A stretch of DNA of 64,000 nucleotides from assembly GCF_000027125.1 (NCBI RefSeq), contig NC_017626.1, one strand, 5' to 3'. Positions 36,227 to 60,145 of this stretch are shown here, one piece after another (positions within the stretch are counted from its first letter, which is position 1; every line of letters starts with the position of its first letter). This DNA is from Escherichia coli 042. GTDB lineage: Bacteria > Pseudomonadota > Gammaproteobacteria > Enterobacterales > Enterobacteriaceae. The position numbers and the translations under genes were made by a program. Below the pieces are notes generated by a model. It was given only the letters and a program-made list of their open reading frames with translations, had not been told where the DNA came from and did no database searches.

Positions 36227-36340
36227 ATGAACAGCATACTGATAATCACTTCTCTCCTTATCATATTCAGCATTTTTAGTCATGCCCTAATAAAATTAGG
36301 GATTGGCATATCCAATAACCCAGACAAAACCGATGTATAA
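36227..36340 (+). CDS. Candidate 37-aa hydrophobic small protein
   Basis: ATG preceded by GAGG at -9; encodes [37 protein letters not shown] (single predicted TM helix). Confidence 0.3.
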
Positions 36341-36408
36341 GTCAACATATCCTGAATCAGACATACAATATCGCAATGAAAATCAATAATATTTTAAGGA
36401 ATATCTTC

Positions 36409-36642
36409 ATGAAATCAAAAGACACCCTAAAGTGGTTCCCTGCGCAGCTTCCTGAAGTAAGAATTATCCTAGGGGATGCTGTAGTGGAAGTAGCAAAACA
36501 GGGAAGACCTATTAATACCAGAACATTGCTTGATTACATTGAAGGAAACATAAAGAAAAAATCATGGCTGGATAACAAAGAATTATTACAAACAGCGATA
36601 TCAGTTCTTAAAGACAACCAAAATTTAAATGGTAAAATGTAA
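36409..36642 (+). CDS. ydfK: Prophage small protein YdfK
   Basis: 77 aa from MKSKDTLKWFPAQLPE...; AAGGA RBS 8 nt upstream. Confidence 0.8.
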   Translation: MKSKDTLKWFPAQLPEVRIILGDAVVEVAKQGRPINTRTLLDYIEGNIKKKSWLDNKELLQTAISVLKDNQNLNGKM

Positions 36643-36959
36643 TATAATAAACTTACTTTTTTATCATTTTTCCACTTTAACAACATTTTGCTCCACTTTT
36701 CCACGTCCAAACAACTTGAAATCTGGTTAAAATAACACGCAACACTATTCTTCTTCCTTGAGCCCGCCCGGAACTCGAAAAACAAACCGAGTTAAAGCCA
36801 TTTTTCACAAAATCGATTTTGGGTCTCACCAAAAATTACGGGGTTGCATACGCATTCGTTTATTTTCGAACGTGTACATACAAATATGCACAAAAATAAT
36901 CATAATTATTTTCTGAGATGCATTATGATATGAACACCAATTTCGAATAGAGTCTCACT

Positions 36960-37550
36960 ATGTCTCGAATTTTTGCTTACTGTCGGATATCAACGCTGGA
37001 TCAGACCACCGAAAATCAACGCCGGGAAATCGAAAGTGCAGGTTTTAAAATCAAACCTCAGCAAATAATCGAAGAACACATTAGCGGCTCAGCAGCAACC
37101 AGTGAGCGTCCTGGTTTTAACCGGTTGCTTGCTCGCCTGAAATGTGGTGATCAATTGATTGTGACAAAACTGGATCGCCTTGGTTGTAATGCAATGGATA
37201 TCAGGAAAACAGTGGAACAACTGACCGAAACAGGTATCAGAGTGCATTGCTTAGCATTGGGTGGCATTGACCTGACCAGTCCAACAGGAAAAATGATGAT
37301 GCAAGTAATTTCAGCAGTCGCTGAATTTGAACGAGACCTTTTACTTGAACGCACTCATTCCGGGATAGTAAGAGCCCGCGGCGCAGGGAAACGTTTTGGT
37401 CGACCACCTGTGTTAAATGAAGAACAGAAACAGGTGGTATTCGAACGAATTAAGTCAGGTGTAAGTATAAGTGCCATTGCCCGGGAATTCAAAACCTCGC
37501 GGCAAACCATTTTAAGAGCCAAAGCAAAACTTCAGACACCTGACATATAA
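36960..37550 (+). CDS. pinQ: Serine recombinase, DNA invertase (Pin/Gin/Hin family)
   Basis: 196-aa ORF with the catalytic Ser region ([15 protein letters not shown]) and a C-terminal HTH. Confidence 0.9.
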
Positions 37551-37647
37551 AAAATAATCTCGGTGTGAGATGCTTTACGTGTTCCAAGCCCCCTTCCTTG
37601 CCGTAAATGGAAAGATACATCTAATTATAGAATTTATATGTTTTACC

Positions 37648-38223
37648 CTACGGCAGTGCTGGCCATTCAATATCCTGTGCAGTTGACGTATCAACACGGT
37701 TCAGCAATACCCGATACTTTTTCCATGCTTCCAGCAACGAGATTTCTTCCTCCGTTGCAATTTCCAGATCTGCAGCATCCTGAAGCGGCGCAATATGCTC
37801 ACTGGCTACCTGCATCAGGTTGTTTTTTGTTTCTTCCGCCTCCCGGATCCGGAACAGTTTTTCTGCTTCCGTATCCTTCACCCAGGCTGTGCCGTTCCAC
37901 TTCTGAAACTCCCCTTCCGGCGATAACCAGGTAACATTTTCCGGTAACGGACCGAGTTCAGAAATAAATAACGCGTCGCCGGAAGCCACGTCATAGACGG
38001 TTTTTCCCCGATGATCTTCAACGAGATGCCACGATGCCTCATCACTGTTGAAAACAGCCACGAAGCCTGCCGGAATATCTGGCGGTGCAATATCGGTACT
38101 GTTTGCTGGCAGACCTGTATGAGGCGGAATATATGCGTCACCTTCACCAATAAATTCATTAGTTCCGGCCAGCAGATTATAAATTTTTATGGTCTGTGGT
38201 TGTTCACTCATTCTGAATGCCAT
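37648..38223 (-). CDS. tfaQ: Tail fibre assembly chaperone
   Basis: 191-aa ORF immediately downstream of stf, Tfa family. Confidence 0.88.
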
Positions 38224-41192
38224 TATGCAAGCCTCACAATATAGTTAAATGCGATGTTTTTGACGGTGTTTTCCGCGTTACCAGCAGCGTTAACGGTGAT
38301 GGTGTGTCCATGTGAACCAATCGCAACGGAGTGCGTATGAGCACCAATACCGACAGTATGTGCATGTGCGCCTGCGCTTGCAGCAGTGCCGGACAGCGAG
38401 TGGGTATGAGCACCATCTGATGATGTCTTCCCTGCATTACGAGTCTGGCCACTACCGCTTGTTGTGCTCATAATCCCCGCGCTTAGATTTGAAATCGCGG
38501 TATAACCATTAGGGAAAATGCTCGTGTTCGTGCCACCAAATGCACCGGAACTCTTGTGTTGGTGCGCACCGGCACTATTTGCAGTCCCGCTAATACTATG
38601 GGTATGCGCCCCGGTGTTATTCGTGGATTTGGTTCCGTAATCAAACGACGATGTGTTTTTCGTCCCCAAATCCGTACTGGATGCGCTGGCGCTGTGGGTG
38701 TGCGATTTAATGCCGTCCTGTTCCTGAGACAATACGGCACGACCACTGGCGGGTTTGCCCTTAATCGTCCAGCCACGCATATCAGGGATCACGCCTGACG
38801 GATAAGCGGCTGCAAGTTTCGGGTATGCAGATTTGTCAAAAGTCTGCCCCTGCATCAGGGCATAGCCAGACGGAACGGTATCTGATGGCCACGGGATTGG
38901 TGCGCCAGGCGGATAAAACTGCTCTGATGGCGTATAGAGTGAATAAACTGTACCGTCCGTTAACCCTTCCGGCTTATTAGCAGAATATGCTGGTGACGTA
39001 TGAATCGTCACGCTGGCATTACTGGTATAATCCCATTGAATATTTACACCAGTCGCATAATTTCCGATTGCAACGTAAATATCGTAAGTATCACCAGATG
39101 TATTGACCCAGGCAAAATTTGTAAACCCTGTCGATGTGCGCTGCCATAAAGCACCAGTAATCCCCTTCGGATTACCATTACCTGCACGCAAAACAAGTTC
39201 AGATATACCTGCCTGTTGAGGTGACCCCACGTTAAATCCCGCGCCACCAATCAACGTAATTGAAACAACAGAACTCGCCTGTGGCATGGTTACCGTTGCT
39301 AATTTGAACCAACCAGCACCACCGCTGAATGACATTGTTGTTGAGTTAAGCGTACCAATATCTTTCGGCGTCAGTGTTATATCCGCTGAAAGCGCCTTAC
39401 CATTCACCTTACGGGCAGAAGGTACCCGACCATTCGCATTATCATTAGCTGCTTTCACTGCTTTCGGTGTCGCGGCAAGCGTTTCAGATGCGCTGTTGGT
39501 TGCACTACTGAGCTGGACAATTCCTTTTTGTGCTGTCGTAGCGTTCTGAGCAGTATATTTCCCGTTAGCAAGGTCATAGGCTGCCTTTACCGACTTTGGC
39601 GTTGCCGCCAGCATTTCAGATGTGCTGTTGGTCGCGTTGCTAAGCTGAACTATCCCTTTCTGTGCTGTCGTTGCATCCTGTGCGGTGTATTTCCCGTTAG
39701 CCAGCTCATACGCGGCCTTAACGGCTTTTGGTGTTGCCGCCAGTGACTCGGAAGTGCTGTTAGTCGCACTGCTGAGCTGTACTATCCCCTTTTTCGTCGT
39801 GCTCGCATCCTCAAGCGCGACGGCGGATGCAATATCCTCTGCCCGTTTTGCCGCTGTCTCGGCGCGCGTTGCCGCGGATTCCGCCGTACTTTTGCTCTGA
39901 GCTGCCGCCGTCGCACTGCCAGCTGCCTCTGTCGCCTTCGTGGATGCCGTCGTGGCGCTGCCCTTTGCTGCTGACGCCTGTCTGGTCGCCTCATCTTTTG
40001 AAGCAGACGCAGATAATGCCGATGACGCCGCCGAACTGGCGGACGATGCGGCAGCCGTTTTTGAGGATTCTGCGCTGGTTTCCGACGCTTTCGCGTTCGT
40101 CTCGGATGTCTTCGCTGCGGAAGCAGACCTCGCTGCTGCGCTGGCCTGTACAGCGGCTTCGCCAGCCTTCGTTGTGGCTGTTGAAGCGGACGATGCAGCA
40201 CTTTCTGCCGATTTTCCGGCGGCGGTGGCACTGGCTGAGGCCTGCCCGGCATTTGTTGACGCGGCGCTGGCAGATGAGGCAGCCGCTGTTTTTGAGTCTG
40301 CTGCTGCGGAGGCACTCTGTGCTGCTGCCGTCTCAGAAGACTTAGCGTTCGTCTCGGACGTTTTTGCCGCCTTCGCGGAATTTCCTGCCGCTGTTGCCGA
40401 GGAGGCTGCACTACTGGCGCTCGAGGCTGCGCTCGTTTCTGATGATTTTGCCGCCTCTTTTGAGGCCGCCGCATCCCGGGCTGAGGTGGCAGCTTCTGAC
40501 GCCTTCGTGGTCGCGGCGGATGCAGAAGTGGCTGCTGATTGTTGTGACGCTGCCGCATTCGTTTCTGACGTTTTCGCGGCACTGGCACTGGTAGCTGCCG
40601 CGCTTTTTGAGGACTCTGCAGCGGCAGCACTTTTTGATGCTTCAGTAGCCTTTGTTGATGCCGTTCCTGCGCTGGAAGACGCTGACTGAGCCGACGTCGC
40701 GGCCTGCCCGGCTGATGTGCTGGCTGCACGTGCTGAGCCTGCAGCATCAGTCGCATGGGTTGCCGCCTCACGGGCTGATGTGCTGGCATCGCTGGCTGAC
40801 TTCTTCGCGGCTGCTGTGTTCTGCGCCACTGCGGACGCGTTACGCGCCACCTCTTCCACCATCAGTTCAAAACGGCGCAGTGCCTCAGGACGGGCATCAT
40901 CCTCCGTCATGGCACCGAGAAAATCATTCAGCGTACCGGGTCGGGAATCTTCATACACGGTGATGGTCCCGGCATGTGACGGCGGGAATCCTTCCACCAA
41001 CAGAATAACGCTGTACTGACCGTACTCAACGTCCATGCTGTAACGCCCGGCCTCATCCGGATTTTCTGAGGCCAGCGTGTTCACCACCACCGTGGTGCTG
41101 TTACGTTTTGCTTTCAGCTGGATTGTGCAGTTCTGTACCGGTTTTCCTGTGCCGTCTTTCAGTACACCTGAAATCTTTACTGCCATATTCAC
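38223..41192 (-). CDS. stf: Side tail fibre protein, full length
   Basis: 989-aa ORF: lambda Stf-like N-terminus ([19 protein letters not shown]...), long Ala/Ser/Thr-rich shaft, three tandem 41-aa repeats, His-rich tip (GAHxHS motifs), conserved end ...[18 protein letters not shown]. Confidence 0.88.
39410..39790 (-). repeat. Three tandem ~123-bp coding repeats within stf (approximate coordinates)
   Basis: Protein units [44 protein letters not shown] repeated three times; the DNA repeat is visible directly. Confidence 0.7.
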
Positions 41193-58223: not shown

Positions 58224-60145
58224 TCATCCTCTCCGGATAAGGCACGGGCGTAATCTGCCAGTGTTTTCTTGTTGGTTGCTGCACCATCCTCTTCCTGCAG
58301 GCTCGCCAGCAGTGCACTGAGATCCAGCTGCCAGCGGGAAATACTGATGCGCAGCGCCGCCAGCGCATAAACGAAGCAGTCGAGCGCCTCATTGCGTCGC
58401 TTTTTGCTGTCCCACAGTATTTTTTTCCTGCCATCCACCCATTTTTCGACCTGCTCTTCAGCAGTCAGCTGCTGCGCTTCGGTCAGATCAAAAATATCCG
58501 GGTTATTCGGGAAGTGAACGGCACCGGGAAGCGGTTCATCCCCTTCCGGCGTCAGTGTGAAGCGGTTATAAATCTGCTCTTTCGCGGTATCCGTACCGAT
58601 TTCGGTAAGGTAAACCCCGTTTTTGTTTCGCTTACGAGGCATGCTGGCCACCGGCTTACCGTAGACGGATGCCCCTTTAATGGGGATCACCCGGAACAGC
58701 CCATGCTTTTTCGAGCGTTCATACACAATGGTCGGGTCAATCCCGCCAATATCCCAGCAGATACGGGATATCGACATTTCTGCACCATTCCGGCGGGTAT
58801 AGGTTTTATTGATGGCCTCATCCACACGCAGCAGCGTCTGTTCATCGTCGTGGCGGCCCATAATAATCTGCCGATCAATCAGCCAGCTTTCCTCACCCGG
58901 CCCCCATCCCCATACGCGCATTTCGTAGCGATCCAGCTGGGAGTCGATACCGGCGGTCAGGTAAGCCACACGGTCAGGAACGGGCGCTGAATAATGCTCT
59001 TTCCGCTCTGCCATCACTTCAGCATCCGGACGTTCGCCAATTTTCGCCTCCCACGTCTCACCGAGCGTGGTGTTTACGAAGGTTTTACGTTTTCCCGTAT
59101 CCCCTTTCGTTTTCATCCAGTCTTTGACAATCTGCACCCAGGTGGTGAACGGGCTGTACGCTGTCCAGATGTGAAAGGTCACACTGTCAGGTGGCTCAAT
59201 CTCTTCACCGGATGACGAAAACCAGAGAATGCCATCACGGGTCCAGATCCCGGTCTTTTCGCAGATATAACGGGCATCAGTAAAGTCCAGCTCCTGCTGG
59301 CGGATGACGCAGGCATTATGCTCGCAGAGATAAAACACGCTGGAGGGGTCATCCGGCGTCCATTTGAGGCCAAACGGCGTCTCTTTGTCGCCAAATTTAA
59401 GATACTGCTCCTCCCCGCAGTGCGGGCAGACAACATGAAAACGCATAAAATGCGGGGATTCACTGGCTGCACGCTCAATCTGGCAGGTGCCTCTCACTTT
59501 GGGCGTGGAGCCACGGATGGACTTTGGCCAGACCGAGCCTTCAATACGTTTGTCGCCAAGGAACGTCGGAGAGCCTTCCTGTTCAATATCCTCATCAAAG
59601 GCAGCAAGTTCATCATAACCCGCCACATCCACCGACTTTTCACGGTAGTTTTTTGCCGCTTTACCGCCCAGGCACCAGAAGCCACGACCATTGGTAAAAC
59701 GCTTCATGGTGAGCGTGTTATCCCGGTGCTTTTTGCCATACCACGGTGCCAGCGCCAGCAGCGACGGAATATCACGGATAGTCGGCTCAACGTGGGTTTT
59801 CATAAAGTTCTCGGCATCACCATCCGTCGGCAACCAGATAAGGGTGTTGCGCTGCTTATGCTCTATGAAGTAGGCATAAACACCCAACAGCATTTTGGAA
59901 TAACCGACACGGGCAGACTTCACCACATTCACCTCACGGATGTAGTCGCTGCCCATCGCATTCATGATGGCCCGCTGAAAGGGCAGTGTTTCCCAGCGCC
60001 CTTCCTGGTATGCGGATTCTTTCGGGAGATAGTAATTGGCATCCGCCCATTCAACGGCGGTCTGTGGCTCCGGCCTGAACAGTGAGCGAAGCCCGGCGCG
60101 GACAAAATGCCGCAGCCTGTTAACCTGACTGTTCGATATATTCAC
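58220..60145 (-). CDS. A: Terminase large subunit A
   Basis: 641-aa ORF with Walker A ATPase and nuclease domains; overlaps Nu1. Confidence 0.92.

Follow-up and report, generated by a model that had tools for sequence, protein, structure and literature searches.

The prophage gene ynfT encodes a translated and conserved 37-residue hydrophobic peptide and is the first cistron of the ynfT–ydfK transcript

The short open reading frame (ORF) at positions 36227–36340 of the window, a 64,000-nucleotide stretch of Escherichia coli 042 DNA (contig NC_017626.1), is ynfT, which represents the YnaM/YnfT family of small proteins in prophage Qin, and we regard this identity and the expression of the gene, taken jointly, as almost certain. 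The gene is already known: it has a name, it is represented in Pfam and in NCBIfam, and its translation has been demonstrated since 2018. Considering all of the observations together, the best explanation, which we hold to be quite probable, is that expressed ynfT specifies a single-pass inner-membrane accessory peptide that is made in lysogens and would bind a larger membrane protein. The features of the locus, in window coordinates, are:

35614, no strand: left end of the Qin-like prophage, placed by reference to the 'cryptic prophage Qin' feature of K-12 (1632277)
35865–38426, + strand: module in common with K-12 Rac, 98.6% identity (blastn of Rac locus L003 against the window)
36001–36051, + strand: promoter region and mapped transcription start site (TSS), from the 51-mer of Kim et al. 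2012; the TSS is the A at 36051
36051–36226, + strand: ynfT 5′ untranslated region (UTR), 176 nt, part of what was earlier called the 5′ leader of ydfK
36219–36222, + strand: ynfT Shine–Dalgarno (SD) sequence GAGG, read from the sequence, with a 4-nt spacer before the ATG
36227–36340, + strand: ynfT coding sequence, YnaM/YnfT family small membrane protein, 37 aa, ATG start, polar tail NNPDKTDV
36341–36408, + strand: ynfT–ydfK spacer, 68 nt, no terminator
36409–36642, + strand: ydfK, 77 aa, cold-shock-induced protein, second cistron, from the annotation

In E. coli K-12 MG1655, ynfT is b4748 (YP_009518787.1; 1632890–1633003), it lies within the 'cryptic prophage Qin', and its product is 100% identical to the peptide encoded in the window. 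The RefSeq ynfT coding sequence of strain ECCWS199 (WP_120795384.1; L001 3128–3241) coincides exactly with window positions 36227–36340. The peptide matched Pfam family PF23676 over its full length (1–37 of 37 residues) with 96.2 bits (cut-off 27), NCBIfam family NF041477 with 63.9 bits (cut-off 35), and also phrog_35882. The original prediction had described the ORF as unannotated, which is true only of the ORF track from which that reading was made, since the gene carries the locus tag and protein accession given above and has Pfam and NCBIfam families of its own. A second K-12 copy, ynaM (b4744), is located beside ynaE in prophage Rac. YnaM is an identical 37-aa protein encoded 68 nt upstream of the ydfK paralog ynaE, with the same upstream DNA, mapped TSS and pin–tfa neighbours as ynfT; it differs in belonging to another prophage at another chromosomal site and in a few silent nucleotide changes.

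When the 601 bases around the ORF were used as a query, they were found in 2,806 of 5,426 complete E. coli genomes, where the features annotated under the match were 'ynfT: YnaM/YnfT family protein' and 'ydfK: cold shock protein YdfK'. The ORF alone was found in 2,803 of the 5,426, with up to three copies per genome. It was an annotated coding sequence in 59 of 60 E. coli records sampled evenly down the ranking, the 60th being a 37-nt partial match only. The family is narrow, with four clusters, all at least 81% identical, among 1.84 billion representatives, and a scan of about 100,000 species genomes with a degenerate DNA motif for the invariant part of the peptide returned two records, both from Escherichia; because short ORFs are under-called in metagenomes, these family-size figures are lower bounds. 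A 2024 survey of the y-ome still counted ynfT among the uncharacterised Qin genes.

The ORF had been placed at a prophage end beside ydfK, and this location was borne out: 613 nt of prophage DNA separate it from the left Qin junction as annotated in K-12, and ydfK follows 68 nt downstream. The junction overlaps the 5′ end of the truncated ydfJ gene (34340–35623, − strand). The window is collinear with K-12 positions 1630000–1635583 at 98.2% identity, and the match to K-12 is regained some 21 kb further on, at nohA, near 60137. This collinearity, together with the return of homology at nohA, indicates that the Qin-like prophage in the window occupies the same ydfJ site and is more complete than that of K-12. 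The module in common with Rac comprises the upstream region, ynfT/ynaM, ydfK/ynaE, pin and tfa, and in complete phages it is located between int/attP and the pin–tail-fibre genes, the arm in which lambdoid phages carry accessory genes. A holin or another membrane protein of a lysis cassette was considered as a candidate and rejected, ynfT being located at the int-proximal end beside pin and tfa, outside the lysis region. Positions 38223–60665 (− strand) carry some 21 kb of lambdoid genes for the tail and head that were lost from K-12 Qin, among them genes for a 989-aa tail fibre and a 1137-aa J-like protein, as well as ORFs of the size of a tape-measure protein (730 aa) and of a terminase (641 aa).

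The coding sequence itself was as originally predicted, an ATG-initiated frame of 37 codons with the translation given there. The GAGG of its ribosome-binding site is also present, at −8 to −5 relative to the ATG and not at −9, a position that was off by one. The best anti-SD duplex has a free energy of −5.9 kcal/mol for ynfT, versus −6.1 kcal/mol for ydfK. The earlier view of the product as a hydrophobic one-helix peptide agrees both with its hydropathy (19-residue Kyte–Doolittle peak of 2.52 at residues 4–22; GRAVY of 0.99) and with an AlphaFold2 model, in which a single helix spanning residues 2–30 (mean pLDDT 88.7) is followed by a polar tail. The tail is acidic/neutral, with a net charge of 0. 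The length of the ORF alone is uninformative, because the six frames of the surrounding intergenic stretch (36% GC) contain five ATG-initiated ORFs of at least 37 aa.

Evidence that the frame is used as a coding sequence came from its conservation in phages. The module was found in 13 phage records, including those of the viable lambdoid phages mEp460, Tritos and 2H10; Salmonella phage 118970_sal3 carries it with DNA that is 79% identical. The ORF of the Salmonella phage and those of IMG/VR contigs all have 37 codons and the same GAGG and ATG, amid diverged flanks, and no E. coli-type or Salmonella-type copy departs from this GAGG, although the bases around it differ. The reading frame and its ribosome-binding site, whose conservation across related prophages had been proposed as a check, are thus kept. 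All seven variants have 37 codons, and 25 of the 37 residues are invariant. The E. coli and Salmonella-type genes are separated by 22 nucleotide differences, which fall 4, 4 and 14 at the first, second and third codon positions (P = 0.0035) and are synonymous in 14 cases and non-synonymous in 8 (Fisher P = 1.3e-6). Among random mutants carrying 22 substitutions, a fraction of 8.5e-5 keep the frame together with at least 29 of 37 identical residues, and a quarter of the random mutants at this divergence still keep an open frame. The other two frames across ynfT are full of stops. The dN/dS ratio of ynfT (0.09–0.11), in a comparison that, the family being tiny, comes essentially from two lineages with dS near saturation, was indistinguishable from that of ydfK (0.07–0.10). 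The C-terminal half is the most constrained part of the peptide (dN/dS of 0.055): a 12-residue C-terminal motif is unchanged despite five silent substitutions, and the invariant C-terminal half extends from A20 to D36. As judged from these substitutions, the amino-acid sequence of ynfT is shown to be under purifying selection as strong as that acting on ydfK.

Every YdfK locus for which upstream DNA was available has a ynfT-like ORF 68–80 nt upstream. The reverse does not hold, because in loci L045 and L047 the ORF and its SD sequence are intact without ydfK, and homology breaks at the stop codon of the ORF; these loci are evidence that ynfT is a unit independent of ydfK. The IMG/VR contigs L010–L012, L014 and L015 begin exactly at the ydfK start codon, so that the prophage boundary called there cuts off ynfT. 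The cut appears to be an artefact of how boundaries are called, and it would hide ynfT in such collections.

Translation of the gene was documented in published work on K-12. VanOrsdel et al. (2018; PMC6001520) SPA-tagged 80 short ORFs at their 3′ ends in the MG1655 chromosome, and their Table 1 lists the exact YnfT peptide twice as detected by immunoblotting, once as ynaM (ynaE/ttcC) and once as the copy between ydfJ and ydfK. The latter ORF, at 1632890–1633003, was named ynfQ in that study (PMC6001520) and is today's ynfT. Both copies were unidentified positives in a tetracycline ribosome-profiling screen (PMC6001520). The chromosomally tagged protein was readily visible in unstressed exponential- and stationary-phase cells, and YnaM–SPA was more abundant than most newly detected small proteins in the work of Weaver et al. 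(bioRxiv 10.1101/511675), where YnaM showed no start-codon density upon profiling with retapamulin or Onc112. Because ynfT and ynaM are identical from −52 to +22 around the ATG, initiation footprints cannot be assigned uniquely to either copy, and the discarding of multi-mapping reads may plausibly account for the missing start peak. The chromosomal tagging with immunoblotting and the tetracycline profiling provide the translation data that the original prediction had called for, and they show that E. coli K-12 makes a stable 37-aa protein from ynfT.

The transcript that carries ynfT had been mapped before, under the name of its neighbour. Kim et al. (2012; PMC3415461, Table S1) reported a TSS at 1630738(+), equivalent to 1632714 in NC_000913.3, represented by 24 reads and assigned to ydfK, which gave ydfK a 5′ UTR of 325 nt up to its old start; the same 51-mer was mapped for ynaE with 113 reads. 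Since this 51-mer matches the window exactly at 36001–36051, transcription starts at 36051, which leaves 176 nt to the ATG of ynfT and 358 nt to that of ydfK. The TAGAGT at 36039–36044 resembles a −10 box, and we assign it as the putative −10 element. A consensus promoter scan missed the mapped promoter and returned sites at chance level (7 versus 6.3 in shuffles). A search for a terminator-like site between ynfT and ydfK found none, and none of the TSSs listed in the gene-associated table of PMC3415461 lies in the ynfT–ydfK spacer or antisense to it. Given a TSS at 36051, with neither a terminator nor a listed TSS in between, ynfT is the first cistron of a ynfT–ydfK transcript, and this transcript is what had been described as the long 5′ leader of ydfK. 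PMC3415461 also gives ydfK a second and weaker upstream TSS, with 16 reads and a distance of 654 nt to the old start, which would fall near window position 35722 (+ strand). This point lies past the prophage junction and before the module in common with Rac, in DNA specific to Qin, and the window has no exact match to the 51-mer of this TSS.

Short leader transcripts of ynaE and ydfK have been proposed to be riboswitch-like and co-immunoprecipitate with Hfq (PMC5089854, PMC4152368). ydfK is strongly induced by cold (PMC10654059) and is up in long-term stationary phase, and in one RNA-seq study ynfT was up 5.7-fold together with deaD and rhlE. The Rfam search returned no family match at the ynfT locus. 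The cspA thermoregulator model (RF01766) had no match in 35500–37000 even at E ≤ 10; the same model matched positions 62727–63112 (− strand) with 112 bits versus a gathering score of 78. The csp leader found there presumably belongs to a prophage csp gene, and it fits the load of cold-shock genes in the Qin region.

For the peptide itself, we propose that YnfT inserts into the inner membrane as one transmembrane helix (approximately residues 3–28). The conserved tail would most likely face the cytoplasm (N-out/C-in), because the only lysines, K23 and K34, are on the C-terminal side; there are just two of them, and they are offset by two aspartates. YnfT would then probably modulate a larger host or phage membrane protein by binding to it, the binding surface being the invariant C-terminal half (A20–D36). 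It would be an accessory ('moron') function expressed in lysogens, which may matter in the cold, when the transcript is induced. Binding and modulating a larger membrane protein is the usual mode of action among those small membrane proteins of bacteria that have been characterised. YnfT is comparable to AcrZ, MgrB, MgtS, SgrT and KdpF of E. coli in its size of fewer than 50 aa, its single predicted transmembrane helix, its detection by the same chromosomal tagging and the mode of action proposed for it. These proteins have no sequence relationship to YnfT and belong to the core genome, whereas YnfT is prophage-borne. That YnfT acts by binding and modulating a larger membrane protein is, taken by itself, a tentative proposal drawn from this analogy, and one that we hold with limited conviction.

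The position of ynfT on the mRNA raises the alternative that it is an upstream ORF whose product is irrelevant and whose translation controls ydfK in cis, for instance by opening the ydfK SD sequence, by keeping Rho from terminating transcription or by giving rise to the short 'leader' RNAs. ynfT does lie within the RNA described as the long 5′ leader of ydfK/ynaE, the short leader transcripts of which bind Hfq, and the only mapped ydfK TSSs among those listed are upstream of it, with no terminator or listed TSS between the two genes. Their pairing is also nearly universal. In addition, a conserved UCCU (36350–36353), located 10 nt after the ynfT stop codon, can pair with the ydfK SD sequence AGGA (36397–36400). 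In the RNAalifold consensus (columns 146–149/195–198) this helix is made of just four invariant pairs, and because these never vary the pairing is neither supported nor refuted; masking of the ydfK SD sequence by UCCU is speculative. Another candidate, CUCCUU inside the ynfT ORF, paired with the ydfK SD sequence in the minimum-free-energy fold of a single sequence and was rejected because it is not kept in the Salmonella-type copies. The ynfT–ydfK consensus structure as a whole is weak (−8.3 kcal/mol, with one compensatory pair), and folding at 37 versus 10 °C predicted no cold-dependent opening of either start site, the predicted accessibility being the same at both temperatures. The 68-nt gap argues against direct termination–reinitiation coupling. 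Further objections are these: a pure leader needs no amino-acid constraint, yet dN/dS is about 0.1, equal to that of ydfK; the tagged protein is stable and abundant; and the intact ORF and SD sequence of L045 and L047 show that the association with ydfK is not obligatory. We consider it unlikely that ynfT is solely a leader peptide. A dual role, as a protein and through a cis effect on ydfK, is possible.

A broader idea is that the leader RNA of ydfK/ynaE is a coding and possibly dual-function mRNA, in which translation of YnfT would gate YdfK (for example, through the UCCU/SD pairing), and/or that YnfT and YdfK, a protein whose model is similar to the AriR/YmgB connector fold, form a cold-responsive prophage module that would rewire a host membrane signalling or transport protein; we regard it as doubtful. 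SgrS/SgrT resembles the ynfT RNA in that an Hfq-bound RNA first taken as a non-coding leader or riboswitch candidate encodes a small membrane peptide, and differs in that the ynfT RNA has no known base-pairing target or regulatory activity.

A specific and reasonable version of the membrane-binding proposal is that YnfT is a superinfection-exclusion or phage-defence factor, which would block DNA entry or the assembly of competing phages at the inner membrane. In keeping with such a role, ynfT belongs to the accessory arm of viable lambdoid phages, with int, pin and the tail-fibre genes as neighbours, and is transcribed from a promoter of its own that is active in lysogens with cryptic prophages. 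In the Salmonella-type loci a lipoprotein-like ORF adjoins the ynfT-like ORF, and exclusion genes such as cor or llp encode lipoproteins in comparable positions. By contrast, PADLOC returned no match for YnfT, phrog_35882 is without functional annotation, and co-regulation with cold-shock genes is not an obvious trait of exclusion systems. The retention of ynfT in the long-decayed Qin and Rac prophages also speaks against exclusion, yet it fits any role that benefits the host. On balance, exclusion appears improbable as the function of YnfT.

A small hydrophobic single-helix peptide at a prophage end also brings to mind a type I toxin, that is, a membrane-depolarising peptide silenced by an antisense or trans-acting small RNA, as in hok/sok, ldr/rdl, tisB/istR, shoB/ohsC and zorO/orzO. 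A toxin was one of two possible roles named in the original prediction, the other being a regulator of membrane proteins. YnfT resembles Hok, Ldr, TisB, ShoB, ZorO and PepG1 in its small hydrophobic helix, its long 5′ UTR and its prophage or mobile context. Like the mRNAs of many type I toxins, that of ynfT has a long 5′ UTR (176 nt), its AUG is partly buried in the predicted fold (unpaired probability 0.1–0.2), RNA from the region is bound by Hfq, and there is weak similarity to PepG1 (E = 0.055). This similarity is compositional, and its score of 13.1 bits is far below the cut-off of 70, so that membership in PepG1 was rejected; no other toxin model matched, and PADLOC gave no match for YnfT. 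On the antisense side, there was no Rfam antitoxin RNA, no antisense terminator and no excess of promoter-like sites (the 7 versus 6.3 in shuffles given above), nor is there an antisense TSS among those listed in the gene-associated table of PMC3415461, which does list sokC. The comparatively high level of the tagged protein in unstressed cells argues against tight repression, and up to three ynfT copies per genome are tolerated. Type I toxins usually have a basic or aromatic tail, whereas that of YnfT is acidic/neutral. These observations make a type I toxin very unlikely.

That ynfT is a chance ORF or translational noise without function, as might be suspected from the five ATG-initiated ORFs of at least 37 aa in the same AT-rich stretch, the quarter of random mutants that stay open and the very narrow family, is excluded for practical purposes by the substitution pattern (the synonymous excess at P = 1.3e-6 and the 8.5e-5 of random mutants that match the observed identity, with the SD sequence and ATG invariant amid diverging flanks) and by the published immunoblots of the protein.

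As a discovery, ynfT carries little weight; what is useful is the clear finding that the gene is not new, along with its sharper description. Our analysis added that ynfT is the first cistron, that selection on it is as strong as on ydfK and that the ORF is an independent unit; it also showed that the gene is carried by viable lambdoid phages, with a narrow, phage-borne distribution and presence in about half of the complete E. coli genomes. A membrane peptide retained through long prophage decay and expressed along with cold-shock genes makes a sensible, though modest, subject for work on small proteins or on what prophages contribute to the physiology of their host.

The loci compared in this analysis gave several further observations. 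In the Salmonella-type loci (L019 1643–2734, from IMG/VR, and also L004 2442–3475), four accessory genes are clustered: one for a distant YdfK paralog (70 aa, 29% identity), a lipoprotein-like ORF of 133 aa (MKSSITFSFLLVLTVIITGCSS...), a YnfT-like ORF of 37 aa and one for YdfK. The annotation of phage 118970_sal3 divides the lipoprotein-like ORF into two coding sequences. A small hydrophobic ORF belonging to the distant YdfK paralog was not found in these loci, from which we infer that the pairing of such a peptide with YdfK is not an ancient, repeated architecture. In L047 (7290–9748), and likewise in L045, a 729-aa protein with an Ala/Glu/Lys-rich repeat is encoded just upstream of the orphan ynfT-like ORF, and the stop codon of its gene is overlapped by a 90-aa ORF, an arrangement reminiscent of a toxin–immunity pair.

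YdfK had no Pfam family match. Its AlphaFold2 model, built from a five-sequence alignment (pLDDT 78), was closest to E. coli YmgB/AriR (2oxl_A; TM-scores of 0.67/0.81, rmsd of 2.3 Å over 59 columns, Foldseek E = 0.07). YmgB/AriR, itself induced by cold in E. coli, is a small regulator; given the shallow alignment and the borderline E-value, the likeness of the model to it is a lead only.

Elsewhere in the window, the Rfam search gave a sub-threshold match to CssrB, a Shigella small RNA family, at 35870–36007 (− strand; 23.8 bits versus 76, E = 0.026), at the left edge of the module common to Rac and Qin and just upstream of the mapped promoter; this match is probably due to chance. A gathering-level match to IS009 (37682–37880, − strand, 221 bits) lies inside the tail-fibre assembly gene tfaQ, and one to the Hfq-binding RNA STnc560 (26545–26757, − strand, 276 bits) lies in the chromosomal part of the window.
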